The notes below the pieces were generated by a model. The model was not told the origin of the DNA. It saw only the letters and a program-made list of their open reading frames with translations, and ran no database searches. Position numbers and translations under genes: made by a program. Shown one piece after another: positions 47,402 to 64,000 of a stretch of 64,000 nt of DNA. The number at the start of each line of letters is the position of its first letter. Position 1 is the stretch's first letter. The stretch is from a virus, in IMG/VR virus record IMGVR_UViG_2512047007_000001, positions 4,917 through 68,916 of that record; one strand, given 5' to 3'.

Positions 47402-47806
47402 ATGGCATGCGCGTGCAAGAACAAGCGCCAGACGTACGAGGTCGTCCCGAACGCCGGCCGCGCGAACCGGCCCGCGTTCACCAGCTCCAGCCGCGGCACG
47501 GCCGAGGCCGTCGCGGACCGGTACCCGACCAGCGTCGTCCGGGACAAGAAGACCGGCGACGCCGTCTACCACGCCTGGCCCAAGGGCGCGTACGAGGTCG
47601 TCGCCGGGGACACGGTGATCCTCCCCGCCCACACCGTCCGCAACGACGCCGACAAGGCCCCGCTGCGGGCCGCTGCGGACGAGCGGGCGGCCGACGGCGC
47701 CGTGGTCCGCGCCGTGAGCAGCGGGGCCGTGGTCTACCCGCTCCCGGCGGCGCTCACCGCCTCGGGCGCCACCCTCACCGCCGAGCAGGCCCCCACCCCG
47801 GCCTGA
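47402..47806 (+). CDS. Hypothetical head-region protein
   Basis: RBS GAGGAG; MACACK start. Confidence 0.7.
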   Translation: MACACKNKRQTYEVVPNAGRANRPAFTSSSRGTAEAVADRYPTSVVRDKKTGDAVYHAWPKGAYEVVAGDTVILPAHTVRNDADKAPLRAAADERAADGAVVRAVSSGAVVYPLPAALTASGATLTAEQAPTPA

Positions 47807-47843: not shown

Positions 47844-47883
47844 GGCTATGCTGGTGCACTAGTACCGCTGGTTATGGGCCGGG
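47844..47883 (+). promoter_or_regulatory. Late promoter plus leader motif, copy 1
   Basis: GGCTATGCT followed by GCTGGTTATGGGCCGGG. Confidence 0.7.
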
Positions 47884-47915
47884 TCATCAGGCTTCACCTC
47901 CTGGAGACCCGACCC

Positions 47916-49595
47916 ATGGCCTTCGAGCTTCCGCAGGACCTCAACCAGCTCTCCGACGGCGCTTTCCTCTCCACCCTCACGGACGAGGACCTGAGCGCGG
48001 CCACGGAGACCACCGCGCGCACCTTCGCCGCGCTGTCCGCTCAGGACGAGATCACGGACGACGCGCTCGCCCAGATGCGGGCGCTCGCCGCCGGCACCGA
48101 GGCGATCCGGTCGGAGCAGCGCTCCCGCCGTGAGGCCGCCGAGGCCGCCGTGAGCGAGATCGACCAGCTCGCCGCGCAGATCCGCGGCGACGAGCCGCAG
48201 ACCGCGCCCGCCGAGCCGGAGCAGTCCGCGGCGGAGGAGACCACCGCGGCCGCCGACCCGGCCCCCGAGCAGCCCGCCGCCCCGGCGGCCCCGGCCGCTC
48301 CGGCGGCGCCCGCGACCGCCACCGCCTCGGCCGTCGCCCGGCCCGCCCTCAACCTCAGCGCCGTGCGCCGGGTCCAGCCCCGCGTCCTGCCCGAGGCCCC
48401 GGCCCCGGGAACCACCATCACCGCGGCGGTCGACGTCCCCGGCTACACCCCCGGCGCGGCCCTGGACTTCAACGACATCACCGCCGGCATCATCTCCAGG
48501 GCGAATGCCCTGAAGACCGCGGGCGGCGGCGTCGGACAGGTCATCTCGTACCGGCACCCGTACCCGCAGGAGCTCATCGTCACCGACTCCTCGTCGGCGC
48601 CGGAGGGCACGAGCGTGGCCCTGACCGCCTCCAGCCAGAGCCGCCTGCCGGAGCGGGAGCTCGTCGCGTCGGGCGGCTGGTGCGCCCCGTCGGAGACCAT
48701 CTACGAGCTGACCGACACGGCGTGCCCCGACCTCCTGTGGGACGCACCGGAAATCCAGCTCGCCCGGGGCGGCCTGCGCTACTACATGCCGCTCTCCCTC
48801 GACGTCGCCGCCATGACGTGGGTGCACACCGAGGCCGACGACATCAGCGGTGCGGAGAAGCCCTGCTTCCGCATCCCCTGCCCGGAACCCGTCGAGGTGC
48901 GCTGCGACGCCATCGGCGTGTGCCTGGAGGCCGGCATCCTCACACAGCGCCACTTCCCCGAGCTGGTCGCCTGGTACCTGCGCAACTCGATGGTGGCGCA
49001 CGAAATCCGCATCAAGCAGCAGCTGTTCCAGCAGGCGCTCAACACCGCCACGCCCGTGGACATCCCGGCGTCGTTCGGCGCGCTCTCCAGCGTGTTCGCC
49101 GCGGTGGGTCTCCAGGCGGCCGACATGATCGAGCGCCACAGCCTGTGCGAGTCGACGGCCCTGGAGGTCGTGTTCCCGTACTGGTCGAGGCAGCTGTTCC
49201 TCGCCGACCTCGCGCGACAGAACGGCGTCAACATCTGCGACCTCGACCCCAACTGCATCCAGGACACGTTCAGCAAGCTCGGCGTCCGCGTGCAGTTCGC
49301 GCGGGGCCTCAACCCGGCCGTGCCCGACGAGATCGGCGGCCCCGACCCCGCCACCGCGTTCCCCGGCGAGGTCAAGTTCCTGATCTACCCCGCCGGCGGC
49401 CTCGTCATCGGCCGTGGCGAGGAGGTCAACCTCGGCGTCATCCACGACTCCACGAAGTTCCGCGTGAACGACTACACCGCGCTCTTCGCGGAGGAGTGCG
49501 CCGCGCTGGTCAACCGCAGCGTGGACACCCGCCTCGTCACCGTCCCGGTCTGCCCCTCCGGCGAGACCGGCGCACAGACGCTCCTCGCCTGCTGA
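47916..49595 (+). CDS. Major capsid protein with N-terminal scaffold
   Basis: Coiled-coil N-terminus; ASGGWCAPSE, RGGLRY; position. Confidence 0.85.
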   Translation: MAFELPQDLNQLSDGAFLSTLTDEDLSAATETTARTFAALSAQDEITDDALAQMRALAAGTEAIRSEQRSRREAAEAAVSEIDQLAAQIRGDEPQTAPAEPEQSAAEETTAAADPAPEQPAAPAAPAAPAAPATATASAVARPALNLSAVRRVQPRVLPEAPAPGTTITAAVDVPGYTPGAALDFNDITAGIISRANALKTAGGGVGQVISYRHPYPQELIVTDSSSAPEGTSVALTASSQSRLPERELVASGGWCAPSETIYELTDTACPDLLWDAPEIQLARGGLRYYMPLSLDVAAMTWVHTEADDISGAEKPCFRIPCPEPVEVRCDAIGVCLEAGILTQRHFPELVAWYLRNSMVAHEIRIKQQLFQQALNTATPVDIPASFGALSSVFAAVGLQAADMIERHSLCESTALEVVFPYWSRQLFLADLARQNGVNICDLDPNCIQDTFSKLGVRVQFARGLNPAVPDEIGGPDPATAFPGEVKFLIYPAGGLVIGRGEEVNLGVIHDSTKFRVNDYTALFAEECAALVNRSVDTRLVTVPVCPSGETGAQTLLAC

Positions 49596-49680
49596 CCGCA
49601 CCTCCCCCCGACCCGGACGCGCCGGGCTCTCGGCCATGAGCCGGGGGCCCGGCGCCCCTTGAACGCACCGGAGGTGCACG

Positions 49681-50520
49681 ATGCCGTCAGACATGCGTAA
49701 GGCTGTCGAGCCCATCACCGGGACGCCGCTGCCGCACGGCATCCTCAACGCCTGTACCACCGTCGTGGACGTCGATGACGTCCACGAGCTGATGGGCGTG
49801 GAGTGGCTGGGCCTCGGCTGCTCCCCGGTCCGCCACTGGGTGGACCCCTGCCTCACCGACGAGTCGCCCGGCGAGTCGCCCGGGGAACCCGCCGTCAAGA
49901 TCTTCGACCGGCCGGAGATCGAGGCCGCCGACCCCATCACCCTGTACGCCGGTGCCGAGTGCAGCGCCCTTGGCTGGTCGTACGCCGAGGCGGTGGAGCA
50001 CGCCCGGGCCACCATGGACCTCGGCGAGCAACAGGGCCTTGAAGCCGCGTTCATGGCCTCCCACCTCTCCCAGCAGGCCGTGGACCTCACCCCGGCCGAG
50101 GGGCCGGTGTCAGTCGCTCAGGGCGTCGCCGCGCTGGAAGGCTGCCTCGCCGAGTCCTACGGCGGCGTGGGCGTCCTCCACGTTCCCGCCGGCGTCGCCG
50201 CGCTCCTCGGCTGCTGCAACATCCTCCGCGAGGACCCCGTCACGGGCGACCTGCGGACCCTGGCTGGCAACTGCGCGGTGATCGGCGCCGGGTACTCCGC
50301 GCTCAACGTCGGCCCCGGCGGGCTGCCTGCCGAGCCCGGCACGACCTGGCTCTACATCACCGGCCCCGTCCACATCCGGCGCGGCCCCCTCGACACCATC
50401 CCCGACCGCTCCGCGTCGGTGAACATCCGCACCAACGACCGCCGGGTGCTCCTGGAGCGCTCCTACGTGGTCGGCACGACGTGCACCGTGTGCGCAATCC
50501 AGGTGGTGACTTGCCCGTGA
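49681..50520 (+). CDS. Putative head decoration/completion protein
   Basis: RBS GGAGG; follows the capsid gene. Confidence 0.65.
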   Translation: MPSDMRKAVEPITGTPLPHGILNACTTVVDVDDVHELMGVEWLGLGCSPVRHWVDPCLTDESPGESPGEPAVKIFDRPEIEAADPITLYAGAECSALGWSYAEAVEHARATMDLGEQQGLEAAFMASHLSQQAVDLTPAEGPVSVAQGVAALEGCLAESYGGVGVLHVPAGVAALLGCCNILREDPVTGDLRTLAGNCAVIGAGYSALNVGPGGLPAEPGTTWLYITGPVHIRRGPLDTIPDRSASVNIRTNDRRVLLERSYVVGTTCTVCAIQVVTCP

Positions 50521-51137
50521 ATCCGCTCATCACAGTGCAGCCGTGTCCCGAGCAGCGGCAGGCACTCGCCCGGTGGGCCGTGGCTCAGGTGCCGAAGGTA
50601 CGCACCGTGGGCCCGTCCTCGTTCGGGGTGCCCCCGCACCTGTACACCGACATGCCCGAGGCGCTGCTCCGCGGCGCCCTGGTCGACGGCCACCCCTACC
50701 GGTCGCCCGACGACTACGAGGCCACCGAGCCCGCGCCGGCCGGAGCGCCGACACTGCTCGGCGTGGCCACCCCAGACGGCCTCCGGGACGCGGTGCTGGT
50801 CCCCCCGCTCCCGGAGGCTCCCCAGACGTTCGAGGAAGGGGAACTCGTCGTCCTCGCGGGCGGGGCGGACGGCCAGGAAACCTACGTCCCCCTCGGGGAC
50901 AGCAGCGGGGACACGGGCGGAGACGCCCCGGCCCCGCCCTCGCCGGGCCCCACGGCTGCACCGGCCGTGACCAGCGGGGACACCGCCGGGGACACGGGCA
51001 GGGACGCGGGGGACACGAGCGGGGATAGTGGCGCCACCGCACCCGCCAAGCCGTACCTCTGCGGCGACGGGTGCCCGCGAGCCTTCACCACCGCACGCGG
51101 CCGGGCGCGGCACCGGCGCACCGTCCACGGGAGGTAG
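50517..51137 (+). CDS. Protein with GGGGACA-encoded linker and C-terminal C2H2 zinc finger
   Basis: KPYLCGDGCPRAFTTARGRARHRRTVH. Confidence 0.65.
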   Translation: MNPLITVQPCPEQRQALARWAVAQVPKVRTVGPSSFGVPPHLYTDMPEALLRGALVDGHPYRSPDDYEATEPAPAGAPTLLGVATPDGLRDAVLVPPLPEAPQTFEEGELVVLAGGADGQETYVPLGDSSGDTGGDAPAPPSPGPTAAPAVTSGDTAGDTGRDAGDTSGDSGATAPAKPYLCGDGCPRAFTTARGRARHRRTVHGR

Positions 51138-51140
51138 CCC

Positions 51141-52055
51141 ATGCCCGTCCAGCCAGTTCCTTGCGCCCCCGGCGGCGGTGGGGGCGGCGAGCCCGGCCCG
51201 TCCTGCTGCGCCCCCTCCATCGCCTCCACCCCGCTCTGCCGGGAGGACGGCTCCACGATCCTCCTCGTGCTCCGCTCCGCGTGCGCGTGCGACGGCGCCG
51301 AGCCCGCCCCACCGGAGATCACCGGATGGCTCGACCCGGTCACCGGCGAGTTCACCGAGGGCGCGGCACCGGCCGACGCCCGGCCGTGCGGCGCGGACGA
51401 CTGCGCGTCCGTCTCTCTCCTGCGCCTGTGTGACCAGACGGAGGAGGAGTGCGTCCCCTTCCTCCGGCACCTGGTGCACGACTGCTCCGGCACGGTCACC
51501 GCGAGCACGGACACCACCCTCGACGGCGTCACGCCGTACGTGGTGGCCGGCGAGACGGGGGACTGCGACGACTGCCCGTGCGAGGACGGCAGCAAGGTCC
51601 TCCCGCTCTGCGACTACCAGCCAGACGGCACGAGCGTGCCGTTCCTGCGGCACCTCACCTACGACTGCACGACCGGGCAGGTGACGGAGGAGACCGACAC
51701 CGAGACGGACGCCACCACCCCCTACACCCCGACCGGCGACATCGGAGAGTGCGGCGAGTGCCGTCCAGCGCCGATGTGCCCCCAGCTCCTCGGCTTGTCC
51801 GGGCCCGAGACCTGGACCATGCCGGAGGGCACCGAGTCCGTCGCCGTCACCGTGGCCTGCGGCCCCGTCACCATCACCGACTGCGCCGGCAACGCGACCG
51901 TGGTCAACGAGTGCGGAACCGCCTTCTCCTGGGCCGCGCCCGCCTCCGGCGGCTGCGGTCCCGCCTCCCTCTGCACGCCCTTCACCGTGGAGCTACCCGA
52001 TGGCGCCGCGGTCTACCTCAACTTCGTGAGCCCTTGCCTGGGAGACGCCTCGTGA
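51141..52055 (+). CDS. Cys-rich repeat virion protein
   Basis: Two LCD..VPFLRHL.xDC..DT..D..TPY..G..G.C units. Confidence 0.75.
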   Translation: MPVQPVPCAPGGGGGGEPGPSCCAPSIASTPLCREDGSTILLVLRSACACDGAEPAPPEITGWLDPVTGEFTEGAAPADARPCGADDCASVSLLRLCDQTEEECVPFLRHLVHDCSGTVTASTDTTLDGVTPYVVAGETGDCDDCPCEDGSKVLPLCDYQPDGTSVPFLRHLTYDCTTGQVTEETDTETDATTPYTPTGDIGECGECRPAPMCPQLLGLSGPETWTMPEGTESVAVTVACGPVTITDCAGNATVVNECGTAFSWAAPASGGCGPASLCTPFTVELPDGAAVYLNFVSPCLGDAS

Positions 52056-52984
52056 ACTGCAACTGCTGCCCCCCTGTGATCATCAGCAGCAACGGTGGGG
52101 GGCCGCCCCAACCGCCGGCACCGCCGTGCGTCAGCCCGGGGTCAGAGACGGTCCTCACCGTGGACAGTGACGGATGCCTCGGCCTCATCACCGATCCGGC
52201 CGGCCCGGTCCGGCCAGGCCCTGACGGCCTCACCGTGTGCCTCTCGGAGCAGGCGGACAACACGCTCACGCAGGACGGGGACGGCTGCCTCTACGTCCCG
52301 ACCGCCCAGCCGGAGCCGATCGCCACCGGCTGCGGCATCCTCGGCGACGGAACCACCGGGGCACCCCTGGCCGCCGGCACTTCCGGCACCTGGGGAGCCG
52401 GGCAGCTCGCCTTCCCCTGCGACGACATCAACGGCGGCTCGATCTACTGCGACAGCCGAGGCCGGATGCGTACCGCGCCCCCGACGTATGCCCGCGGCTT
52501 CTCCCAGTTCGCGCAGGAGAGCGTGAGCGGCCCGCCGGAGGCCGTGGGCACCACCAGGACGACGCACGACGTGACGCTTACCGTCACGAACCCCTCGCCG
52601 TGCCGCACGATGATCACGTCAACCCGCGTCAGCGTCAACGGCGTCGCCTTCACTCAGACCGCCGCCAACGACTGGTCGATCGACTGGGGGTTGTCGTTCT
52701 CGACGGACGGCAGCGAGCCGCCGCCGCCCGCGGTCGGCTCTGGCCTCATGCGGCGGCGCACCGCCCCTGACCTCGCCTCGCCGGACGAGTGGGAGTTCCC
52801 CGTCATCGACGCCGTGACCAGCGCAGGCGCCTTCGGGTTCGTCGGCCCCGGCGAGACGATCAAGGTCCGCGCGGCGGTCGGGATCACCTTCCACGCGGTC
52901 AACCCGGCGGCTGGAGCGGACGGGACCCCGCCCGCCTGGCGCATCCGTGAGTTCGGCCTCTACGCCTGGGGCTTCGCGATCTGA
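52052..52984 (+). CDS. Putative virion structural protein
   Basis: Coupled; Cys-rich N-terminus, beta-rich C-terminus. Confidence 0.7.
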   Translation: MNCNCCPPVIISSNGGGPPQPPAPPCVSPGSETVLTVDSDGCLGLITDPAGPVRPGPDGLTVCLSEQADNTLTQDGDGCLYVPTAQPEPIATGCGILGDGTTGAPLAAGTSGTWGAGQLAFPCDDINGGSIYCDSRGRMRTAPPTYARGFSQFAQESVSGPPEAVGTTRTTHDVTLTVTNPSPCRTMITSTRVSVNGVAFTQTAANDWSIDWGLSFSTDGSEPPPPAVGSGLMRRRTAPDLASPDEWEFPVIDAVTSAGAFGFVGPGETIKVRAAVGITFHAVNPAAGADGTPPAWRIREFGLYAWGFAI

Positions 52985-53039
52985 CCCGCCCCGGCTCCCC
53001 TTCTTCCGTTGCTGACTCGACCCGAGAGCGAGACGACCG

Positions 53040-56000
53040 ATGCCCGTAGGCGGCAACTTCACCAACTGCAACTGCGGGCCCGAGACGTCCGCCTGTGAGA
53101 GCCCCACCGAGCCCCTGGCGACTGTCGGCCTGTGCCTGGCAGACGGCTCCCCGATCGCGGTCACGGTGGTCCGTGACTGCGCCGGAGTGGTCACCTCGGA
53201 GGGCTGGCTCGACCTCGCCACCGGCGCATGGTCAGCCGGGCCGCCCCCGGTCGGCACGGTCGCGTGTGGGGACTCCCGCTCCATCCAGGTCTCCGGCACC
53301 TTCTGCGACATCGCCCCGGACAGCGGCGACGTCCTCGGCCTGGTCCTCGTGGAGTACAGCTACGCCGCCGATGGCTCGATCGACGGCGTGCGCCTGGTCG
53401 ACGCCGTCACCGGCGAGACGTACACCCCGACCGGCACGGTGACGACCTGTCCGGCCGGGGTGGAGCAGCCGGAGCGGGACCTCACACAGCTCTGCGACAT
53501 CAACGACGACGAGTCCGGCACCGTCCAGGCGGTCCCGTTCCTGCGGGACTACCAGCGCGACGAGAACGGGCGGATCACTGGCCACAGTGACTACACGCTC
53601 GCCGGCGAGGCGTACGAGCCGACCGGCACCGTGGACGTCTGCCACCCGGCCGAGACGGAGCCGTGTGCCTCCACGGTGTCTACGCTGCGCCTCTGCGACC
53701 TCAACCCGGACGTGGCCCCGGACGAGACGGGCAAGCGGTGCGCGGTGCCGTTCCTGCGGCACCTGGTCTACGACTGCACCGGCGCCCTCACCGAGGCCCG
53801 GGACACGGCTACGGACGGCGTCACCCCGTACACGCCGGTGGAGGCCGTGGACTGCGGCACCGGCGGCGTGCCGGCCATGGTGGAAGTGCCGTGGGAAGTC
53901 GTGGACATCCAGCCGGACCCGGCGAGCGCGGTCGGCCGCGGCCTCATCTACACCCTGTCGCCGATCGACGACCCGACGACGACCGGCACGGTGACGGTCA
54001 CCACGAGCAGTAGCTACAACACGGCCTCCTGCCCGGCGACTCCGCCGGCCTACGCGTACCGCAACCCCACGCAGTACACGTTTACGCCGGACCAGGCGCT
54101 CCGGGACGCCGCAAGCTACGTGCGTTGTGACCTGGTGGACTTCGACCGCTTCGAGCCGGTCACCGGCCTGTCCCCGGCCCCGTCACGGCTCGGCGGCACC
54201 GCCTACTGGGACGGGACGACCGTCCGCCCGACCGCGAATGACGGCGTCGGCGAGATGTACTACGACGGCCCGCCTGAGCAGTGGACGTACCGCGTCGGCA
54301 ACACCGGCGGAGGCAACTCCTGTAGCTCCCTCTCCTTCGCCGCGGTGTCGCTGCGCCCGGAGGGCTGCTGCGCCCCGTGCGGCGGGAGCGGCGGCGGGGA
54401 CGGCAGCGGGCGCACCGTGCAGGAGGTATGCGTCATCGCCAACGCCGCTCCGGACGACGTGATGACGTGGACGCGGGTGATCGAGGACGGCGGCGCCACG
54501 ATCTACTACCTGGACCAGGACGGTGCCCGCTACGACGGCACCCTTCCCGCCGGGCACCAGATCGTGGCGTGTCCGGTGGAGGAGTCGGACACCTGCCAGC
54601 ACTGCGAGACCCTGACTCTGTGCGACGTCCAGCCGGACGAGTCCCCGGGGGAACCGGAGATCGCGTACGAGGCGATCCCGCTCGCCGAGCTCGGCCCGGC
54701 CGGCTCGTACGGCGACGGCAGCCCCGTCACGGGCACGCTGCCCAACGGCGTCGGCTACAGCGTGAACGTGGGCGAGTGGGGCCCCGGCCAGGGGCACTAC
54801 ACGTTTTACCCGTACGACGGCACGCAGGTGTGGTCGTTCACCGAGCCGGTCTATGTCCGGTTCGGGCTGCGCGGCCTCAACATCACGCCCACGGAGTGCT
54901 ACGTCCTCCCCGAGGGCGCGGTGGCCGAGTCCATCAGCCCCAGCCATACGTGGGACCCGGACAGCCGGTACCTGTGTGAGATCACCGGCCAGTCGAGCGC
55001 CACGGATGAATCTGTGTTCCGCCTCGGCCCGGTCACCGAACTGCCCATCGTCCCCTCGGGCAGCAACACCGGCGGCCGTGGCCCCGGCCTGATCGAGGTC
55101 GGCTTCCCCGTGGACGCGCCGGCGCCGGGCTCCTCCACCAGCTTCCTGCGCGTGGTGTGCCGGGACTGCTCCGGCGTCGTCACCTCGGTCACGGATACGG
55201 ACCTGGACGGCACGCCGTACACCCCGAGCGGGACCGTCACGGCCTGCACCAGCAGCAGCGGCGGCGGGGACCAGCCCGCGGAGCCGTGCCGGGACAGCTC
55301 CACGCTCCTGGTCTGCGACCTGCCTACCGAAGGTGTGGACGGCACGGCGACCGCGTCCGACGTGAGCGCGCAGGCCGCGGAGTATCCGTTCGACGCGGAC
55401 CCGATTCGCTGCGTCAACCCTCTGCCGGGCGGCGCAGCCAGCCTGTGGGCCGGCGGTGCCGGGAACGTCGTCTTCCCGGCGGAGACCACGGCATCAGGCA
55501 CGTGCGATGACCGGCCGCGCGGTCAGGTACTGCGCGGTATCGCCGCGGAACTCCAGGCCGATCCGCCGTCGTGCACTGACGGGACCGTCGACGTGACGGT
55601 GTCCGTGCGCGTCACCAACGACAGCCCGCACGCCGCCGCCGCCAACTACAACGGCGGCCTACGGCTCCACCGGGTCGACACCGGGGAGCGGCTGGCGCTC
55701 TCACAGAGCCTCCTTTCTACCCCGGCCAACGCCTCGCGGACGCTCACCGCCACCGCTACCGGCATCGACGCCGGGTTGCTGGAGACCGGGCAACTCGTCG
55801 TCGTCCTCGATGTGGAAACCTTCGACGGCACCAACCCGGCCGGCAACGGGAACCGGTGGACGGCCGACCAGTTCATGGCCACCTACGCCTACGGCACCGA
55901 GGGCTGCGCGAACCAGATCCTCCGCACGGTCGTCACGGACTGCGAGACCGGCGCCGTCCTGTCCGTGTCGGACACCACGATGGACGGCGAGCCGTACGAG

Positions 56001-58373
56001 GTGACGGGCGACGTCGGCCAGTGCGAGAGCACCGGAGGCGGAGCGACAGCGCCGCCGGAGATCCGGTTGGACGTGGAGACGGCGCTCCTGTGCATCCGGG
56101 ACGACGCCGGGAACATCACCGGTCAGGTCTTCGTGGAGCGCATCTACGCCGACCAGACCGGGGAGCGCATCGCGCAGCGCCTCACCGACCCCACCACCGG
56201 GGATGAGGTGGAACTCCCGGACGGCGCCGAGCTGGTCGCCTGCCAGGAGCCCGCGTGCCCGGTCGCGTTCTCCACGGAGTGCGTGGGCGCGGTCACCCGC
56301 ACGGAGGCCGGCTACGACAACACCTCCACGATCAACGGGGTGCCCGGCAAGTGCGGGTCGGTCCAGGGCCCGGGCGGGCAGTTCCCGTGCCAGCCGACCG
56401 GCGCCCTGACGATCACCTCGTGGATCGTGGACGGGGAAGAGGTCATCGGCGAGGGTGGCGGCCGGTCCTTCAACGGCGGCCCCTGTGGGCAGGGCACCAC
56501 CGCCAACCGCGGTATGCACCACAACTGGGCCCTTGCCCTCACCAACCTCGACCCGTCTGGCGCCAACTGGAGCGCCCAGGAGGCGGACGGCTGCGCCTGG
56601 TTCGTCGGCTCCACGGGCGGGACCCGCACCGTGTACGGCGCCATGACGGTGCAGGACGCGGCGGGACAGCAGTGGATTCTCGGCCCGGCGCAGGCCTGCG
56701 AAGAGGTCCAGTACACCAAGGTGTACACGCAGGAGTGCGACGGCACCGTGTCCGTCTCCTGGCTGGACGCTCAGGGCGTGGCGACGGACGCCCCGGACGG
56801 CGACCTCGTCCCGTGCGGCACGGGCTGCGGGAGCGGTGGCGGGGCCGGCCTGGACGTGGAGACGGTGGCGCTCTGCGACGTCCAGGCGGACGGCACCACC
56901 GTGCCGTTCCTGCGGCACATCACCTACGGGACCGGCGGGCAAGTCTCCGTCGTCCTGGACACCGGCCTCGACGCGTACTCCCCGTACGTCCCGAGCGGCA
57001 CCGTGGGCGTGTGCCAGCCGCGCGAGGACGGCCAGGACGTGGAACTCCTGGCCATGTGCGTCATCGACAACGCCACCGGCGGCACCGTGCAGCGCATCCT
57101 GGCGGAGGTCCGCTACGACGCGGAGACCGGCGAGCGCACTGGCGTCTCCTACGTGGACCCGAGCACCTGGGGGCCGGTCGCGCTCCCGGGCGGCACGCAC
57201 ATTGGTCTGTGCCCGGAAGCCGAGCCCGAGCCCGCCGAGGAGTGCCGGAACACGAGCACGCTCCTGCTGTGCGACGACACGGCCGGCACGCCGGAGACCG
57301 AGGCTGTGCCGCTGTCCACCCTCGCGGAGTCCCCGCCGGCGGTGAGCGGCACGCTACCGAACGGCGTCGGGTGGTCCGTGAGCGCCGGCCGGTGGGCTGA
57401 GGCCGCGGCCGGATACTCGATCGCGGTCAACCCCGGGCAGACCAACCCCGAGGGCCCGCAGGCGTGGACGTTCGATCAGCCGGTGCACGTCCGCGTCGGC
57501 ATGACCGGGCTCAACCAGGAGGAGTGCGCGCAGCTCCCGCCCGGCCTGGAGGTCGAATCCCTCAACACCGGGCACACCTGGGACCCCGTCACGCGCCGTC
57601 TGTGCGGGCTGCCCGGTGCGCCGGCGACCGCCATGACCATCCTGCGGAGCACCGCCCCGCTCACCAGCCTCGAATGGGACGCCGTCTACGACGGCGGTGC
57701 GGCGCCCGCCGCGAGCGGGGTGGGCCTGCTGGAGCTCACGACGGTGCCCGAGCCGGTGCAGTTCCTCCGGCACGTCACCGTGGACTGCGAGACGGGCGCC
57801 GTGGTGTCCGTCGCAGACTCCACCCTGGATGGCGACCCGTACACGGTCGTGGGTGAGGTCGGGCAGTGCACCAACGCCGCGCCCGCCGAGCCGGAGACCC
57901 CTCCGTGTGACGCCCAATCCGTGCTGTCCGCCTGCCGGTGGGACGACACGGACGGCGACGGCATCGCGGACACGGAGTACGTCGAGCTCCTGGCTGTCGA
58001 CTGCGACGGTGTCCTCGCCGGGATCGGCACGTACCTGCCGGACCTCTCCGAGCCGTACGAGCCCGTGAGCCCCGTGGACGGGAGCACGGCCGACCCTGGC
58101 CCGGAGCCCGCGGTGAACGTCCAGGCGCACCGGGTGCAGCTTGCGCCCGGCGGCACGTGGGACGCGGCGGACGTCGCCGCGCTCCGCTCCGTCACCCTGA
58201 CCGCGCACAGCGGCACGGGTCAGATCACCACGGCGGACGGGGTGTCCACCCTGTTCTCCGGTGAGTCGGTGACCTGGTCCGTGGACAAGGACGTGGACGC
58301 CGCTCTTGTCGGCCCGCTCACCGTCACCGCGGGCACGGGCACCGTCACCGTGACGTGGACGCGCTCCGTCTGA
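53040..58373 (+). CDS. 1777-aa Cys-rich repeat protein with inserted beta domains
   Basis: About a dozen related repeat units; paralogous inserts. Confidence 0.85.
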   Translation: MPVGGNFTNCNCGPETSACESPTEPLATVGLCLADGSPIAVTVVRDCAGVVTSEGWLDLATGAWSAGPPPVGTVACGDSRSIQVSGTFCDIAPDSGDVLGLVLVEYSYAADGSIDGVRLVDAVTGETYTPTGTVTTCPAGVEQPERDLTQLCDINDDESGTVQAVPFLRDYQRDENGRITGHSDYTLAGEAYEPTGTVDVCHPAETEPCASTVSTLRLCDLNPDVAPDETGKRCAVPFLRHLVYDCTGALTEARDTATDGVTPYTPVEAVDCGTGGVPAMVEVPWEVVDIQPDPASAVGRGLIYTLSPIDDPTTTGTVTVTTSSSYNTASCPATPPAYAYRNPTQYTFTPDQALRDAASYVRCDLVDFDRFEPVTGLSPAPSRLGGTAYWDGTTVRPTANDGVGEMYYDGPPEQWTYRVGNTGGGNSCSSLSFAAVSLRPEGCCAPCGGSGGGDGSGRTVQEVCVIANAAPDDVMTWTRVIEDGGATIYYLDQDGARYDGTLPAGHQIVACPVEESDTCQHCETLTLCDVQPDESPGEPEIAYEAIPLAELGPAGSYGDGSPVTGTLPNGVGYSVNVGEWGPGQGHYTFYPYDGTQVWSFTEPVYVRFGLRGLNITPTECYVLPEGAVAESISPSHTWDPDSRYLCEITGQSSATDESVFRLGPVTELPIVPSGSNTGGRGPGLIEVGFPVDAPAPGSSTSFLRVVCRDCSGVVTSVTDTDLDGTPYTPSGTVTACTSSSGGGDQPAEPCRDSSTLLVCDLPTEGVDGTATASDVSAQAAEYPFDADPIRCVNPLPGGAASLWAGGAGNVVFPAETTASGTCDDRPRGQVLRGIAAELQADPPSCTDGTVDVTVSVRVTNDSPHAAAANYNGGLRLHRVDTGERLALSQSLLSTPANASRTLTATATGIDAGLLETGQLVVVLDVETFDGTNPAGNGNRWTADQFMATYAYGTEGCANQILRTVVTDCETGAVLSVSDTTMDGEPYEVTGDVGQCESTGGGATAPPEIRLDVETALLCIRDDAGNITGQVFVERIYADQTGERIAQRLTDPTTGDEVELPDGAELVACQEPACPVAFSTECVGAVTRTEAGYDNTSTINGVPGKCGSVQGPGGQFPCQPTGALTITSWIVDGEEVIGEGGGRSFNGGPCGQGTTANRGMHHNWALALTNLDPSGANWSAQEADGCAWFVGSTGGTRTVYGAMTVQDAAGQQWILGPAQACEEVQYTKVYTQECDGTVSVSWLDAQGVATDAPDGDLVPCGTGCGSGGGAGLDVETVALCDVQADGTTVPFLRHITYGTGGQVSVVLDTGLDAYSPYVPSGTVGVCQPREDGQDVELLAMCVIDNATGGTVQRILAEVRYDAETGERTGVSYVDPSTWGPVALPGGTHIGLCPEAEPEPAEECRNTSTLLLCDDTAGTPETEAVPLSTLAESPPAVSGTLPNGVGWSVSAGRWAEAAAGYSIAVNPGQTNPEGPQAWTFDQPVHVRVGMTGLNQEECAQLPPGLEVESLNTGHTWDPVTRRLCGLPGAPATAMTILRSTAPLTSLEWDAVYDGGAAPAASGVGLLELTTVPEPVQFLRHVTVDCETGAVVSVADSTLDGDPYTVVGEVGQCTNAAPAEPETPPCDAQSVLSACRWDDTDGDGIADTEYVELLAVDCDGVLAGIGTYLPDLSEPYEPVSPVDGSTADPGPEPAVNVQAHRVQLAPGGTWDAADVAALRSVTLTAHSGTGQITTADGVSTLFSGESVTWSVDKDVDAALVGPLTVTAGTGTVTVTWTRSV

Positions 58374-58436
58374 CCCGCTCAAGGGCCCGCCGCTCATCGA
58401 GGGCGGCGGGCCCGCCCTGTACCTGAGGAGGTACCT

Positions 58437-58898
58437 ATGTCTGGCACCAACGGCAGCGTGGCCGCCGCGTCCAGTGACGTGGAGTACGAGGTCCTGTGCG
58501 ACGACGGAGGCCCGTTCCTCCGCCGCTACACCACGGTGGGGGGAGGCGCCCCGACCGTCACGGACACCGAGCTGGACGGCGCTACGCCGTACACGCCGGC
58601 CGGGGCCGTCACCCGGTGCGGCACTCCGGCAGCCGCGGCGCTCGTGGAGGCGACGGTGGAGAGGGTGAGCGGGGCGGGCTCGGTCACCATCGACGCCGGC
58701 GCCCGCTCCGTCACCGTCGTGGTCTACGCCGGGGCGCCCGCCGTCGCCATCGGCGGCGGCACGGCGGCGGCCCTCCCCGCCGGCACGTCCCTCACGTGGG
58801 GCGTCAACCAGGGCGGCGGGGAGGCCCTGGGGGACGCGCTGGTCTTCACCGGAGTGGCCGGGGATGACTTCCTCGTCACCAGCACCCGTGAGGTCTAG
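58437..58898 (+). CDS. Short paralog of the repeat protein (one repeat plus C-terminal domain)
   Basis: VLCDDGGPFLRRY..DTELDGATPYTPAG.V..C. Confidence 0.8.
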   Translation: MSGTNGSVAAASSDVEYEVLCDDGGPFLRRYTTVGGGAPTVTDTELDGATPYTPAGAVTRCGTPAAAALVEATVERVSGAGSVTIDAGARSVTVVVYAGAPAVAIGGGTAAALPAGTSLTWGVNQGGGEALGDALVFTGVAGDDFLVTSTREV

Positions 58899-59213
58899 GT
58901 GGCAGAAGGAACGGACGGCGCGTACGCCGCGCCCGGGCCTCGGGTGGAGCGTGCCCGGGGTGTGACGGACAGCGCGGGGAACGTCACCTTCGCGTGGCCC
59001 GTCGGCGCGTTCACCGCTCCACCCGTCGTCACCATCGGCGTGCAGGCCGGGGCCGGATTCCGGTCGCACGCCATCACGGCATCCTCGGCGACGGCCACCA
59101 CGGTGAATGTGCAGGTGTCCGCCGGTGTGACGTTGCTGGGTATCGGTGTGCTCGCCGTAGGCGCGGCGGCGGCCGGCGTCACGGTCCACGCTCAGGCGGT
59201 CGCCGCGCCCTGA
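58899..59213 (+). CDS. Small beta-rich fibre-tip-like protein
   Basis: VTFAWPVGAFTAPPVVT. Confidence 0.6.
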   Translation: MAEGTDGAYAAPGPRVERARGVTDSAGNVTFAWPVGAFTAPPVVTIGVQAGAGFRSHAITASSATATTVNVQVSAGVTLLGIGVLAVGAAAAGVTVHAQAVAAP

Positions 59214-59260
59214 GACGGAAGGGCCGGGGTGCGCGGGCCCGCTTGGGGCCGGGCGTCCCC

Positions 59261-59328
59261 GGCTAGACTCCTGGTAGCCGCTGGTTCTGGGCCGGGCTGA
59301 TCTTCACCGCTGCTGGTTGTGGGCCGAG
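59261..59328 (+). promoter_or_regulatory. Late promoter plus two leader motifs
   Basis: GGCTAGACT; GCTGGTTCTGGGCCGGG (59280); GCTGGTTGTGGGCCGAG (59312). Confidence 0.7.
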
Positions 59329-59359
59329 CCGTCCAACTCCGCTTTGTTGGAGGGCCCCA

Positions 59360-60061
59360 GTGCCAGCACCGCTCATTTCCAATGCCGCCACGGTGCGCGT
59401 CACGCGCGTGGACGGCTGTGGTCGCCCTGTCTGCGGCGAGGACTCCTCGTTCGTCACCGACTGCTTCGCCTCCGTCTCCATGGCGGCGAACATCGAGGAG
59501 GGCGAGGACATCACCTTCACCGCCGCCAACGGCCGTCAGTGCGGGTTCAAGCGAGGCTGCCCCACCCTCAACGGCTACGACCTCACGTTCGGGTTCTTCG
59601 AGGCGTCGCCGGAGCTCATCGAGATCATGACCGGCAGCCCCGTGTACTTCGACTACGACGGCCGCCCGATCGGTTTCGATTCGTGTTCGATTCCCTGTAA
59701 CTCCGGTTTCGCGCTGGAGGTGTGGACGGACGTGCTCGGCGCGGACGTCTGCGAGGACGAGGCCGCCGAGGGCGCGTGGGTCTACTTCCTCCTCCCGTGG
59801 GTCACCAACGGCATCCTCGGGGACGTCGAACTCGCCAACGAGGCCGTGAACCTGGAGCTGACTGGCGCGACCCGCGCGGGCGGCAAGTGGGGCACCGGCC
59901 CGTACGACGTCCAGGCCATCGACGCCGGCGGCACGCCCGGCCCGATGCTCGCCCCGCTCGGCTCCACCTGCCACCGGCGCATGTTCATCACCTCCATCGC
60001 CCCGCCGGAGACCAGCAACACCTACATCCCGGTGGCCGGCGACTTCTGCGTGGCGTCCTGA
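59360..60061 (+). CDS. Major tail (tube) protein
   Basis: RVTRVDGCG, GFALEVWT, YFLLPW; RBS GGAGG. Confidence 0.8.
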   Translation: MPAPLISNAATVRVTRVDGCGRPVCGEDSSFVTDCFASVSMAANIEEGEDITFTAANGRQCGFKRGCPTLNGYDLTFGFFEASPELIEIMTGSPVYFDYDGRPIGFDSCSIPCNSGFALEVWTDVLGADVCEDEAAEGAWVYFLLPWVTNGILGDVELANEAVNLELTGATRAGGKWGTGPYDVQAIDAGGTPGPMLAPLGSTCHRRMFITSIAPPETSNTYIPVAGDFCVAS

Positions 60062-60063
60062 CC

Positions 60064-60765
60064 ATGGCGCTGGACATCGTGGTGCCGGTGCGGGAGGGCG
60101 TCGTCCACGAGCAACTGCGCTACGCGCTCCGCTCGTGGGCGGCGACCCTCCCGCACCGGCGGGTGTGGCTGGTCGGCGCCCGGCCGTCGTGGGCGACCAA
60201 CGTTGAGCACATCCGCACCCGCCAGGGCGGCACCAAGTACCGCAACACGACGGTGGCCATGGAGGCGGTGTGCCTTCACCCGGAGATCAGCGACCCGTTC
60301 ATCTACTGCAACGATGACTTCTTCGTCCTCCGTCGCCTGGCCGCGGTGCCCGTGTTCCACCGGGGGCCGGTGGCGGAGGTGGAGGCGTACTACGCCACCC
60401 GAGGCAACGGCCGGTACCTGCGCGGCCTGCGGGAGACGCGGGATCTCCTGGTCGAGCTCGGCCACCCCGACCCGCTGTCGTACGAGCTGCACGTCCCCCT
60501 CCCCGTCAACAAGCGCGGGATGCTCGCCGCGCTGGAGACCGGCCGTCACCTCGACGTCCTCCACAAGCGATCGCTGTACGGGAACCTCGCCGGGATCGGC
60601 GGGGAGCGGATGGCGGACGTGAAGGTGATCAACCGGGCGCCAGGGTTCGACACGGCCAGCGGGTTCCTGTCGACCATGCCGGACAGCTTCACCCGGGGCG
60701 CCGTCGGCGGGTACCTGCGGCAAGCGTTCTTCAGGCCGTCCCGGTACGAGCGGGGGCGGCGATGA
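60064..60765 (+). CDS. Stealth-family hexose-1-phosphate transferase-like protein
   Basis: DIVVP, EQLRYALRS, RVWLVG, FIYCNDDFFV, YELHVPLP. Confidence 0.75.
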   Translation: MALDIVVPVREGVVHEQLRYALRSWAATLPHRRVWLVGARPSWATNVEHIRTRQGGTKYRNTTVAMEAVCLHPEISDPFIYCNDDFFVLRRLAAVPVFHRGPVAEVEAYYATRGNGRYLRGLRETRDLLVELGHPDPLSYELHVPLPVNKRGMLAALETGRHLDVLHKRSLYGNLAGIGGERMADVKVINRAPGFDTASGFLSTMPDSFTRGAVGGYLRQAFFRPSRYERGRR

Positions 60766-61580
60766 GCCTGCGCGTCGGGCCCTGCGAGCCGTGGCCCACG
60801 GTGCTCTGCTGCGACACCGACGAGTACCCGCCGGAGGAGGTCGAGCGGTGGACCCGCGTCGCCTCCACCATCCTCTTCCACCTCACGGGGATGCGGTACG
60901 GGCCGTGCCCAGTGACCGTACGGCCGTGCTCCCGCTCGTGCCTCGACGGCGGCGCCCCGCTCTCGTTCCAGGCGATGCCGGGGGCGTCCACGGGCGGGTG
61001 GGTGCCGTACATCGACGGCGCCGGTATCTGGCGGAACGCCTCACTGTGCGGCTGCAAGTCGTCGTGCTCCTGCGGGGAGCTGTCCGAGATCTACCTACCC
61101 GGCCCGGTCTACGACGTCGTGGAGGTCAACGAGAACGGCCAGGTCCTCGCGCCCGGCCTGGAGTACCGGCTCGACGCCCCGGGGCGGCTGGTGCGGCTCG
61201 GCGGCGCCCGCTGGCCGACGTGTCAGGAGATGGCGGAGCCCGAGGGCGCGCCGGGCACGCTCACGGTCACCTACCGGTGGGGCCTGGAGCTGGACGACGC
61301 CGCGGTGGCCGCCGTCTCCGAACTCACCTGCCACCTCCTCCGCGGCTGCGGCGCCGGCGGCGGGTCGTGCGGCTGCAAGGCCAACCCCCGCGCCACCCGC
61401 GTCTCCCGGCAAGGCGTCGAGATCGAGCGGCAGGACGTGACGCTCATGTACACCGAGGGCCTGACCGGTCTCCCCGTCGCGGACGCCTGGATCAAGGCCG
61501 TCAACCCCTACGGGCTCCGCTCCCCGGGCCGGGTCTACTCCCCGGACTACCAGCGCCCCCGCTTCACCGTCTGGCCGTAG
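60762..61580 (+). CDS. Head-tail adaptor
   Basis: ASTILFHLTG, AVSELTC, VSRQGV, GLPVADAWI..VNP. Confidence 0.75.
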   Translation: MSLRVGPCEPWPTVLCCDTDEYPPEEVERWTRVASTILFHLTGMRYGPCPVTVRPCSRSCLDGGAPLSFQAMPGASTGGWVPYIDGAGIWRNASLCGCKSSCSCGELSEIYLPGPVYDVVEVNENGQVLAPGLEYRLDAPGRLVRLGGARWPTCQEMAEPEGAPGTLTVTYRWGLELDDAAVAAVSELTCHLLRGCGAGGGSCGCKANPRATRVSRQGVEIERQDVTLMYTEGLTGLPVADAWIKAVNPYGLRSPGRVYSPDYQRPRFTVWP

Positions 61581-61590
61581 GAGGCCCCTG

Positions 61591-62193
61591 ATGCCGCTCT
61601 CCCCGCTCGCGGTGCACGACCTCGCGGAGGCCGTCCTCGGCTGCGTGTGCGCCGCCCTGGACGCCGCCGTGACGGACGGCGTGGACGGCGCGGCCGGATG
61701 CCCCTGCCGGGCCTGCGTGGTCCCCGGCACGCCCGCGTGGGACGAGTGCGACGCCCTCGACGGCTGCGCCGGCGGCCCGCCCGGACAGCTCACCGTCAAC
61801 ATCGCCCGCGTCTTCCCGTCGAGCCCGGACCGGTTCCCGGCGCAGGACGTCAGTGTCCAGGGCGTGCGGGGGTGCACGCCGCCGCACATCACCGCCGTGG
61901 AGCTGGTCGTCACCCTCCTGCGGTGCGTCCCCACGGTGGACGAGACCGGCTGCGCGCCGACGTGCGAGGAGCTGAACGAGGCGGCGCGGGCGATTCACGT
62001 GGACGCGGCCACCGTCTACTCCGCGCTCTGGTGCTGCCTGCCCGGCCTCAGCCCCAACCCGCGCCGGCCCCGCCGGTTCGTCTTCGGCGCACAGACCATC
62101 ATCGGCCCTCAAGGCGGGTGCGCCGGCCTGGAGCAGAGGGTCACGGTCGCGCTGCCCGGCTGCGGGCAGTGCCCCGGAGAGGAGTCCCCGTGA
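61591..62193 (+). CDS. Tail terminator/completion protein
   Basis: Position; Cys-rich. Confidence 0.65.
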   Translation: MPLSPLAVHDLAEAVLGCVCAALDAAVTDGVDGAAGCPCRACVVPGTPAWDECDALDGCAGGPPGQLTVNIARVFPSSPDRFPAQDVSVQGVRGCTPPHITAVELVVTLLRCVPTVDETGCAPTCEELNEAARAIHVDAATVYSALWCCLPGLSPNPRRPRRFVFGAQTIIGPQGGCAGLEQRVTVALPGCGQCPGEESP

Positions 62194-62567
62194 GCGTCCA
62201 GGTGACCGTACGGCCCGGCGCCCTCGCCCGGCTCCTGCGGCTCCGCAACGGGCCCGTGGAGCGGCGCCTCCGAGAGCGGACCCGGAGGGTGGCGGACATC
62301 GCCGCCCGGGAAGCGCCCGGCTCGATGGGGGACTACGTGGACTGGCGGGTGGAGAACGGCCCGCGCGGGCTCCGGGGCGTCGTCGTGTGCAACCACCACG
62401 CCGTTCGCTTCGTGCTCGATGGCACGCGGCCTCACCTCATCCGGCCGCGCCGGCGGAACGTGCTGCGGTTCCAGATCGGCGGGCGGGTCGTCTACTCCAA
62501 GCTCGTCCGGCACCCCGGCACCAAGGCCAACGACTTCATGAAACGGGCCCTGGAGCAGGGGCGGTAG
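62190..62567 (+). CDS. HK97 gp10-like neck/tail completion protein
   Basis: FVLDGTRPHLIRP...HPGTKANDFMKRAL. Confidence 0.75.
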   Translation: MSVQVTVRPGALARLLRLRNGPVERRLRERTRRVADIAAREAPGSMGDYVDWRVENGPRGLRGVVVCNHHAVRFVLDGTRPHLIRPRRRNVLRFQIGGRVVYSKLVRHPGTKANDFMKRALEQGR

Positions 62568-62959
62568 GCCGGCCCCGGCGGGGTGTTTGACCGCCGGGGC
62601 CGGTCGTGCCACGCTGCTGCGAGCTGATCAGTGCAGCGGCGGAGGCCGCTCCCCTTCACCCCGGGTCTCCCGGGGGCCCCTCATGCCGGGAGGGCGGGGA
62701 GCGGCCTCCGTGCCGTTCCGGGAGTCAGGAGCCCCCGCCGTCGCATCCTCCGCCGCTGGAGCTGGAGCCGGAGTCTCCCCCGGACGAGCCGCCGGAGGAG
62801 CCGCAGGACGGCGAGCTGGTGTCCTGGAGGTAGGGCGTGGGGTCCTGGCGCGTCGAGGACGACCCGAACGGACGTGGGCGGCGGGGAGCAGGCTTGCGCT
62901 GAGAGGCTGTCATGCCCGGGGTCTTCCGCACTTCCGCCCGGCCCACACATCACGGGGGC

Positions 62960-63002
62960 GGCTACCCTGCTGGGGCCGCCGCGCTGCTGGTTGTGGGCCG
63001 GG
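62960..63002 (+). promoter_or_regulatory. Late promoter plus leader motif
   Basis: GGCTACCCT; GCTGGTTGTGGGCCGGG (62986). Confidence 0.7.
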
Positions 63003-63031
63003 CGAGGAGCGGCCGCACGAGGGGCAGACCC

Positions 63032-63592
63032 GTGAGGAAGAGTTTCGCGCTCGCCACCGAGCCGCATGTAGCTGAGCTTCCGTCGCTCGGCCTGGAGCTC
63101 CGCTTCCTGGCCGAGGTGATGGGGGACGAGTACCTGGACGCCTACGCCGAGATGCGCGACATGCAGAAGGCGGAGACCGGTGTGGACGTCGATGACCTGG
63201 AGGGCGCCGACGTGGAGAAGGTCAAGGCGGCGAGCAGCGGGCTCCGGGTGTTCCTGTCGCGCCTCATGCTGCCGGAGTCGGCGGCGCTCATCACGCGCGT
63301 GGACGTCGTACGCGGCGAGAAGGTCGTGAACTCCTTCCAGTCGTGGGACGAGGCGAAGGCCCACGCGGAGAAGGTCAAGGGCGGCGGCCGGCCGGTGTGG
63401 GCGCTACGCCTCCCGGACCGCGTCCTGGTCGAGCTCCTGGAGTGGACCGTGGAGCTCTACACGGGGGGCCGCCGCCCTCCTACGTCGTCTGGCGGCTCCT
63501 CGACGGCCTCGCGCAAGGGTGGGACGCGTGGGACGGGCACCTCGCGCTCCAAGGGGTCGACCCGCACGGCTGGCCGCTCCGCCGCCTCCTGA
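63032..63592 (+). CDS. Tail assembly chaperone (gpG)
   Basis: Position; ends with RPPTSSGGSS after a slippery site. Confidence 0.75.
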   Translation: MRKSFALATEPHVAELPSLGLELRFLAEVMGDEYLDAYAEMRDMQKAETGVDVDDLEGADVEKVKAASSGLRVFLSRLMLPESAALITRVDVVRGEKVVNSFQSWDEAKAHAEKVKGGGRPVWALRLPDRVLVELLEWTVELYTGGRRPPTSSGGSSTASRKGGTRGTGTSRSKGSTRTAGRSAAS

Positions 63593-63888
63593 ACGCGGCT
63601 GAGGCACACATCCTCGCGTCGGCCGAGGACGAGGCGGCCCAGGAACGCATCCGGACGGACCTCTACGCGCCTGCGGGCGGCACGGGGCGCCGCCGGGTCG
63701 GGGCGACCCGTCCGGCCCGTAGGGACGCCGACGACGGCCCCGGGGCCGGGGCCGGGGCCGGAGCCGGGGTGGCGGCGGAGCGCCGGGCGCCGGCGGGGCC
63801 GGGTGGCGGGATGGCGCTGGGGCAGGCGCAGGCCCTCATGGCGCAGCTCGCGGCCGAGGAGCAGCGGTTCGCGGGCCCGCGTCGGTGA
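63466..63888 (+). CDS. Tail assembly chaperone gpT portion (-1 frameshift extension)
   Basis: G GGG GGC heptamer at 63463-63469; overlapping -1 ORF with WPLRRLLNAAE. Confidence 0.65.
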   Translation, partial: GPPPSYVVWRLLDGLAQGWDAWDGHLALQGVDPHGWPLRRLLNAAEAHILASAEDEAAQERIRTDLYAPAGGTGRRRVGATRPARRDADDGPGAGAGAGAGVAAERRAPAGPGGGMALGQAQALMAQLAAEEQRFAGPRR

Positions 63889-63898
63889 CCCGTCCACC

Positions 63899-63955
63899 GG
63901 CTAACCTGAGCGTGACCGGCCGTCGTGCCGGTCACGCCGCTGGTTCTGGGCCGGG
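63899..63955 (+). promoter_or_regulatory. Late promoter, 10-bp hairpin and leader motif, upstream of the presumed tape measure gene
   Basis: GGCTAACCT; CGTGACCGGC/GCCGGTCACG; GCTGGTTCTGGGCCGGG (63939). Confidence 0.7.
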
Positions 63956-64000
63956 CGACCGTCACGAGTTCCGTGAGGTTGCCCGGTGGCTAGCGAAGAG

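Follow-up and report, generated by a model that had tools for sequence, protein, structure and literature searches.

A covarying leader RNA hairpin downstream of promoter-like boxes at capsid and tail operons of Streptomyces and Gordonia phages

Small conserved RNA hairpins that lie just downstream of phage promoters, in several phage-specific copies, are known from the nut sites of lambda, with boxB and the N protein, and from the put sites of HK022. Bulged hairpin operators adjoining a structured ribosome binding site (RBS) occur in the Com/mom system of phage Mu and in the coat operators of MS2 and PP7, and at the tisB standby site a 5′ structure is located at a fixed short distance from a Shine-Dalgarno (SD) sequence held in a hairpin, an arrangement that needs no dedicated phage protein. 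Actinobacteriophages carry start-associated sequences (SAS) and extended forms of them (ESAS), which are repeated, strand-specific intergenic motifs before a subset of genes; SAS have a putative role that is related to translation. The SAS of cluster K mycobacteriophages is a 13-bp sequence, GGGATAGGAGCCC, that contains the RBS and lies 3-8 bp from the start codon. Stoperators of cluster A phages have a bias in orientation, and the capsid gene of T7 (phi10/T-phi) lies between a dedicated promoter with a 5′ stem-loop on one side and a strong 3′ hairpin that is partly read through on the other. In several of these respects the known systems resemble a 21-nt element of a Streptomyces phage that we describe here from a 78,185-bp IMG/VR virus record (IMGVR_UViG_2512047007_000001), of which bases 4917-68916, a stretch of 64,000 nt with a G+C content of ~73% that we call the window, were analyzed. 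The element heads operons for capsid, tail tube, chaperone, tape measure and minor tail proteins, and it is apparently a phage cis-regulatory leader RNA that has not been described so far.

The same comparisons reveal differences. The GNRA-like pentaloop of boxB and the two-stem fold of put are unlike the element, which has a 7-bp stem, a GC bulge and lineage-specific loops. Lambda nut sites contain boxA, whereas tests for a second conserved block upstream or downstream of the element found none; unlike nut and put, moreover, the element recurs in 8-9 units with their own promoters, precedes late virion genes and has a position constrained relative to the start codon. Translation in the Mu system is opened by a small phage protein whose gene lies just upstream, while the protein encoded upstream here, which begins with an MxCxC motif, is a positional candidate only. 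The MS2 and PP7 operators include the start codon and repress, whereas the element hairpin ends ~25-30 nt upstream of the start, and in contrast to the Mu, MS2 and PP7 operators a single operator is common to many operons. Standby sites are not conserved in sequence, unlike the element, which has no 16S complementarity and for which binding by S1 or the 30S subunit is purely hypothetical. Compared with SAS, the element has another sequence, lies 22-35 nt upstream of the start codon, excludes the SD, follows a -10 box and shows base-pair covariation. Stoperators are found also at the early promoter and immunity region, whereas copies of the element are confined to the region of capsid and tail genes. 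The T7 promoter is served by a phage RNA polymerase, and the T7 stem-loop has no bulge or loop conserved across operons. Rfam 15 gave no gathering-score match in the whole window and none at E ≤ 10 for the elements within 59200-64000, on which grounds a known RNA family was rejected, and a literature search that included sequence strings found no description of the element in the papers it covered. The 50-bp motif known from Gordonia phage Vardy is distinct and belongs to the early region.

The element was recognized through a 17-mer, GCTGGTTNTGGGCCG, that a sequence-only reading of the window had placed at five intergenic sites before structural genes. Exact matches are indeed present at 47867, 59280, 59312, 62986 and 63939, all on the + strand, which carries almost every gene of the window, while dinucleotide shuffles give 0.00 copies. 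Tolerating two mismatches adds no copies in the window, and a covariance model of the element scores the five at 29-36 bits (E ≤ 8e-6), with a runner-up of 14 bits in the 64 kb. The full 78-kb record has eight copies, again all on the + strand, with none on the reverse strand and none for a reversed-pattern control; the three beyond the window are upstream of minor tail genes. Matches to PHROG profiles and to proteins of TurkishDelight, a temperate Streptomyces phage that is the closest cultured relative, confirmed the identities of the genes that the window copies precede, namely those for the capsid, the major tail protein (two tandem copies), the tail assembly chaperone and the tape measure.

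The conserved unit spans positions -3 to +17, numbered with respect to the motif's first G, and reads GCY-GCUGG-N5-GGCCG-RGY. Covariation across related phages and prophages, a check that had been named beforehand, was examined in 68 distinct variants from three lineages and revealed compensatory changes at all three pairs of a closing helix. Both sides are changed at pair -3:17 in 14 variants, at -2:16 in 8 and at -1:15 in 19, and these 41 double-change cells compare with 6.9 ± 3.4 in shuffles (0 of 500 as high). Of 16 cases with A at position 15, 15 have U at -1 and none has C, U at 17 accompanies A at -3 in 15 of 17, and relaxed matches extend -2:16 to U-A (GUC...GAC, GUU...AAC, GUA...UAC). 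In the best structure the GCY:RGC closing helix is followed by a 5′ bulge of G0 and C1, the pairs U2-G14, G3-C13, G4-C12 and Y5-G11, and a 5-nt loop. This structure pairs 97.7% of cells, every slid register is far worse, and RNAalifold independently predicts the same bulged fold from 20 major-tail leaders. Variation is absent from the bulge, the U-G pair and the GG/CC pairs, whereas the closing helix covaries. Compensatory changes at three pairs thus show that the element is a sense-strand RNA hairpin, and their preservation of the helix is the mark of a structured cis-regulatory RNA. The fold suggested earlier from the motif itself, CUGGU-UNUGG-GCCGG, had to be abandoned, as its outer pair C1:15 is broken in 21 of the 68 variants and does not covary.

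Promoter-like boxes precede the hairpins. The sequence-only reading had assigned a box, GGCTANNCT, to each motif copy, and boxes are present at 47844, 59261, 62960 and 63899 (14, 10, 17 and 31 nt before the motif), but the copy at 59312, the second of the tandem pair, has none of its own. Two further matches, on the - strand at 39170 and 39957, are unrelated. We collected 184 non-redundant exact motif instances among the matches listed, and 143 of them have a TAnnnT hexamer whose end lies 9-17 nt upstream of the motif, which is more than 100-fold above the background of 0.0007 per nt. Conservation in the box is confined to T1, A2, C5 and T6 (C5 in 119 of 138 aligned sites, with the invariance of T1, A2 and T6 required by the search pattern), so that of the proposed consensus GGCTAnnCT the TAnnCT part survives and the aligned instances exclude GGC. 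Every column from -45 to -1 carries ≤ 0.2 bits in these instances, with no -35 hexamer about 17 bp upstream of the box, and since nothing is conserved upstream of the box the promoters would form a -35-less class. TAnnCT bears the signature of a -10-only actinobacterial promoter box of the host sigma-70/HrdB type, judging from established sigma-70 recognition of -10 sequences.

Transcription from sigma-70-type promoters begins 6-8 nt downstream of the -10 hexamer. Transcripts would accordingly be expected to start 0-4 nt before the 21-nt element. Variable spacing had been the original argument for a motif inside the transcript; the motif does lie in the transcript and acts as RNA, as covariation indicates, but the spacing is mostly flat, at 9-13 nt in ~70% of the 184 instances with no helical phase, and the 31-nt case in the tape measure unit is due to a hairpin inserted between box and motif. 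The same type of box lies 29-43 nt before other genes that lack the element, in Streptomyces phages of the BG cluster (Woodruffvirus) and also in this phage (for example, at the portal operon). Units of the -10-only type hence fall into two classes in this phage, and the element is an optional add-on to a general promoter type rather than a part of promoter recognition. TAnnCT or TAnnnT boxes without the hairpin element, 35-45 nt before start codons, were seen upstream of 40039 and 41279 and also of 29584 and 32128; one element-less box, before the DUF1360 and portal genes, is TATGAT.

Whether the motif is an RNA signal or a DNA site for an activator had initially been left as a choice, and the data favour an RNA signal behind a promoter-like box. 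U-G pairs are frequent in the helix and C-A, the mismatch that U-G becomes on the other strand, is avoided, which implies that the sense-strand RNA is the folded molecule and argues against a duplex-DNA site. Such a site, either a repressor operator or roadblock like the cluster A stoperators or a target for a late activator or sigma-like factor, would suit the asymmetry of the motif, its constant co-orientation with transcription in short intergenic gaps, the temperate nature of the phages, and the small helix-turn-helix protein phrog_645 that is common to all five phages compared. Yet a combination of Watson-Crick and wobble covariation is a signature of RNA, and the spacing to the -10 box shows no fixed phase. 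The copies of TurkishDelight, moreover, are restricted to virion genes, with none near the repressor and cro genes, and the same -10 boxes by inference work without the element. We thus regard a DNA site as very improbable. A Chi-like site was likewise rejected on account of the RNA-type covariation, a sigma-54-like promoter because the GG-GC spacing is wrong, and a leader peptide because no consistent start codon is apparent from the sequence.

The element extends well beyond this record. TurkishDelight has nine copies at orthologous places and is the only one of 50,697 cultured phage records with the exact version, while an IMG/VR scan with the exact motif returned at least 120 stretches, many with 3-5 copies on the same strand. 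In five Streptomyces and Kitasatospora genomes, the UUNUG-type element is found only in same-strand clusters of 5-8 copies per 15-40 kb, which indicates that the clusters are prophages. Other matches in these genomes are at the level of the reversed-pattern control, and single matches in unrelated bacteria are at chance level; use of the element by hosts was rejected on these grounds.

Remoter relatives with the capsid and tail module in common, the BG phages and the Gordonia Wizardvirus phages, carry variant forms. BG phages have GCUGG-CGKUA-GGCCG or GCUGG-UGYUA-GGCCG upstream of their capsid and major tail genes and a form one base longer, GCUG-CGCGCUA-GGCCG, at their tape measure genes, and Gordonia phage Bakery has GCUGG-CCGAG-GGCCG upstream of its capsid, major tail, tape measure and lysin genes. 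Scans for the BG and Gordonia variants returned at least ~100 stretches each, with many of the Gordonia-pattern matches resembling chance. Among the matches listed, a -10 box at the right offset accompanies 50 of 101 unique BG-pattern and 11 of 81 unique Gordonia-pattern instances, and the three loop types together account for more than 400 of the instances collected. Ten core positions are invariant across the Streptomyces temperate, Streptomyces BG and Gordonia phages, and the loops are specific to each lineage (UUNUG, CGKUA/UGYUA and CCGAG). Hundreds of related Streptomyces and Gordonia phages and prophages have the element in common, and in every lineage it marks the capsid and major tail genes. 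To our knowledge, no late activator or antiterminator has been defined for phages of either host. A 21-nt covarying RNA offers a testable handle on how actinobacteriophages time and scale their late expression, and the cultured phages that carry it are open to experimental manipulation (TurkishDelight, TP1604 and further BG-cluster phages, and the Gordonia Wizardvirus group). It might also be used to annotate the starts of late operons in prophages, as a compact promoter-leader part for expression in Streptomyces, or as bait for a missing regulator.

Four units, all on the + strand, are present in the window. The capsid unit begins with the -10 box TATGCT (47847-47852, inside GGCTATGCT at 47844-47852), followed by the element ACC-GCUGGUUAUGGGCCG-GGU (47864-47884), an exact motif match with a covariance model score of 29 bits (E 7.6e-6) whose closing A-U pair is one of the compensatory variants. 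The SD GGAGA and the capsid ATG (47916) occupy 47903-47918, with the ATG 31 nt after the element, and in the predicted fold of this leader (-33.6 kcal/mol, z -4.2) the SD is paired. The major capsid (head) protein gene (47916-49595) matches phrog_777 (E 8.7e-167), and its product is 78% identical to TurkishDelight gp17. In the major tail unit the box is TAGACT (59264-59269), the commonest hexamer of the family with 42 instances, and two elements follow. The promoter-proximal one (59277-59297) scores 35.7 bits (E 8.9e-8), and the start-proximal one (59309-59329), with GCU...AGC and a U-A closing pair, scores 33.7 bits; the tandem arrangement also occurs in TurkishDelight and several prophages. 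A second hairpin, CCAAC/GUUGG (59333-59354), has a 3′ arm that enters the SD GGAGGG before the major tail protein gene (59360-60061; phrog_792, E 1.2e-95).

The chaperone unit consists of the box TACCCT (62963-62968), an element scoring 33.5 bits (62983-63003) and the tail assembly chaperone gene (63032-63592), which has a GTG start, matches phrog_12617 and encodes a protein 43% identical to TurkishDelight gp26, annotated as a tail assembly chaperone (E 1e-35). Between the -10 box TAACCT (63902-63907) and the element (63936-63956; 34.1 bits) of the tape measure unit lies the extra hairpin, a perfect 9-bp stem formed by GTGACCGGC and GCCGGTCAC (63912-63935), and TurkishDelight and several prophages have hairpins of other sequence at the same place. 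The tape measure gene starts with GTG at 63986, continues past the window end at 64000 and corresponds in the full record to a 1109-amino acid open reading frame (ORF) resembling TurkishDelight gp28, its tape measure protein (E 6e-105).

Start codons lie 22-35 nt beyond the end of the motif, with a mode of 28 nt, and the copy nearest the gene always falls within this range. Where an inserted hairpin or a tandem copy places the -10 box 18-57 nt from the motif, the distance to the start codon is still 26-34 nt, and each of the seven copies located far from any start codon is separated from it by another copy. Pairing between the 11 nt that follow the element and the SD region of their own gene reaches -7.40 kcal/mol, versus -6.21 ± 0.18 for permuted combinations (z about -6.6). 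In the major-tail leaders the arms of this pairing covary (CCAAC/GUUGG, CCUCC/GGAGG and CUAC/GUAG), and the SD lies in a second hairpin that adjoins the element. The element hairpin itself is weak (~-5 kcal/mol); forcing it to form costs ~10 kcal/mol relative to the free ensemble, in which its predicted probability is 0.03, and when it is forced the pairing of the start codon falls from 0.64 to 0.47 (p 5e-10).

From these patterns we tentatively favour a leader RNA operator that docks a putative factor and so controls the translation or the mRNA life of virion genes. Each unit would be a compact expression cassette for one virion operon, and the hairpin would serve as a docking site for a macromolecule rather than as passive structure, because the bulge and wobble are invariant, the loop is lineage-specific, the fold is weak, and the hairpin is kept behind another 5′ hairpin. 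The translation initiation region would be where the operator acts, a choice made because the constrained distance is that to the start codon and because the SD lies in the adjoining hairpin; this is the weakest tier of the proposal. Binding by a putative late factor, or by the 30S subunit as at a standby site, could then set the translation and lifetime of capsid and tail mRNAs together. A positive net effect would be expected, given that the element marks the capsid and major tail genes in every lineage and that these genes are also closed by strong 3′ hairpins.

Several observations weigh against this proposal. Leaders without the element are likewise ~22-36 nt long, so the constant distance to the start codon may reflect nothing but normal leader length plus an element at the 5′ end, and the spacing argument is suggestive only. 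A selected 'off' pairing of the 3′ strand of the element with the start region was rejected, being only marginally above control genes (p 0.036) and no better than shuffles. The best duplexes of the element with 16S rRNA equal those of shuffled elements, and a comparison of the proteomes of five complete phages in search of a regulator found only virion-module proteins and phrog_645 common to all. Furthermore, tape measure, chaperone and lysin are not high-copy proteins, and a boost to abundant proteins therefore does not explain every site.

The hairpin might instead act purely in cis, without a partner, by shielding the mRNA from 5′-end-dependent ribonucleases (RNase J or E) or by insulating the RBS from upstream RNA. 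The 5′ stem-loops of T7 gene 10 and ompA work as cis-acting protective structures of this kind. At the usual spacing of 9-13 nt, only 0-4 nt are predicted to protrude 5′ of the hairpin, and the addition of strong 3′ hairpins to the capsid and major tail units is a classic design for stable mRNA. However, the unpaired and wobble positions are invariant across host genera, a constancy that a passive hairpin would not require, and the stem is too weak to be well populated by itself at the predicted probability given above. Moreover, protection of the 5′ end is impossible for an element that persists downstream of a different 5′ hairpin, which is the case in the tape measure units, or that forms an internal second copy, and we consider a purely cis-acting role unlikely.

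The strong 3′ hairpins bear on the main rival of the operator proposal, which is a serious one. In three phages, namely the present one, TurkishDelight and TP1604, the capsid gene and the major tail gene each have a perfect GC hairpin of 15-30 bp behind them, with sequences that are unrelated between the phages. The 16-bp GC hairpin directly 3′ of the capsid gene here (49619-49655 (+), -54.5 kcal/mol, z -5.3) may provide a 3′ end, an attenuator or a stabilizer of the capsid unit, and its counterparts in TurkishDelight and TP1604 are just as strong. A near-perfect hairpin of ~30 bp (60083-60162 (+), -75.1 kcal/mol, z -7.8) begins 22 nt downstream of the stop codon of the major tail gene. The genes beyond both hairpins lack promoter boxes of their own in this phage and would need read-through. 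The rival holds that control is co-transcriptional, with the nascent hairpin modifying host RNA polymerase soon after initiation, either alone as in HK022 put or with a phage protein as in lambda N/boxB and Tat/TAR, to promote escape from pauses or read-through of the post-capsid and post-major-tail hairpins. The element is usually within the first ~25 nt of the transcript, tandem copies exist, a weak hairpin that downstream RNA outcompetes would form best on nascent RNA, and the element, like put, is phage-specific and absent from host genes. Nevertheless, one loading site per operon would do, and each genome has 8-9 separate units in which changes in spacing preserve the distance to the start codon and not that to the promoter. 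No canonical U-tract terminators above chance were found on the + strand from 46 to 64 kb, the boxA-like second block is missing, and the database matches of 40-odd ORFs to Pfam and PHROG include no N-like or Q-like protein. On balance, we judge co-transcriptional antitermination to be possible but somewhat unlikely.

Two features of the 3′ hairpins can be added. Within 49596-49680 (+), the 16-bp hairpin is nested in an outer helix that pairs GCACCUCC with GGAGGUGC, the SD of the next gene (49681), so that the RBS of this gene, which has no promoter box before it, is sequestered. The hairpin at 60083-60162 sits within the 5′ end of a Stealth-like gene, with a related structure at the equivalent place in TurkishDelight, and its weak Rfam matches to families resembling miRNA precursors, on both strands, merely reflect a long hairpin.

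A bolder version of either mechanism, which we hold to be rather doubtful, is that a dedicated small phage protein recognizes the hairpin of all capsid and tail mRNAs and thereby turns translation on or releases polymerase, an undescribed switch for late genes. If true, a protein-binding switch of this type would amount to a genome-wide circuit like Com/mom or Tat/TAR in a large group of actinobacteriophages. The best positional candidate for a hairpin-binding protein is the conserved MxCxC protein, presumably expressed from the element-less portal operon. An ORF for such a protein is directly upstream of the capsid unit at 23 of 27 capsid sites, and an upstream ORF of this kind is present at 19 of 242 other sites. 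Family members at sites across the lineages have 50-140 amino acids, with an N-terminal MxCxC-K-x-R followed by a beta-beta-alpha-beta core; the protein of this phage begins MACAC (47402-47806 (+)). Evidence that the protein binds RNA was sought in a structural model, and this assignment was set aside given a pLDDT (predicted local distance difference test score) of 67, no structural match at E ≤ 0.001 and only a sub-threshold match to DUF7196. Many tail proteins under putative control of the element also begin with Cys-x-Cys motifs, for example MARCQCGG and MARACVCDD.

Other partners were sought in the phage genomes. The best non-self duplexes between the element and RNA encoded by this phage or TurkishDelight are GC-rich chance matches at non-orthologous places. 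The Pfam and PHROG matches of the 40-odd ORFs yielded no candidate for an N-like antiterminator, and many small ORFs are without assignment. The phrog_645 protein (142 amino acids, helix-turn-helix, 36306-36734 (+)), encoded directly upstream of the terminase gene in this phage and present in all five phages compared, is a probable small terminase or else a late regulator. PHROGs and the records of TP1604 and Bakery give it the label 'Rnase E', which is probably spurious, and it has no sequence match among solved structures. Within the 3′ end of the 16S rRNA of a Streptomyces host, GGUGCGGCUGGAUCACCUCCUUU, the sequence GCGGCUGGAU agrees with the 5′ part of the element, GCCGCUGGUU, at 8 of 10 positions; this likeness is one of identity and not complementarity, and is probably coincidence.

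The remaining genes of the virion module include those for the portal (41464-43347), a MuF/protease fusion (43989-47375) and a head-tail adaptor (60762-61580), all assigned by PHROG profiles. The terminase large subunit has 938 amino acids (36731-39547 (+)); its matching part is 87% identical to the TurkishDelight terminase, and there is a weak match to an intein-splicing domain in the middle of the protein. Homologues of QueD (PTPS) and QueE (radical SAM) adjoin the terminase gene (34434-35602 (+) and neighbours) and are consistent with 7-deazaguanine modification of the DNA; they were not seen in the BG and Gordonia phages that carry the leader element. Between the capsid and tail modules lies an ORF of 1777 amino acids (53040-58373 (+)) without a Pfam match, part of which resembles Mischief19 gp18, and the ORFs on either side of it match the same PHROG (18824).

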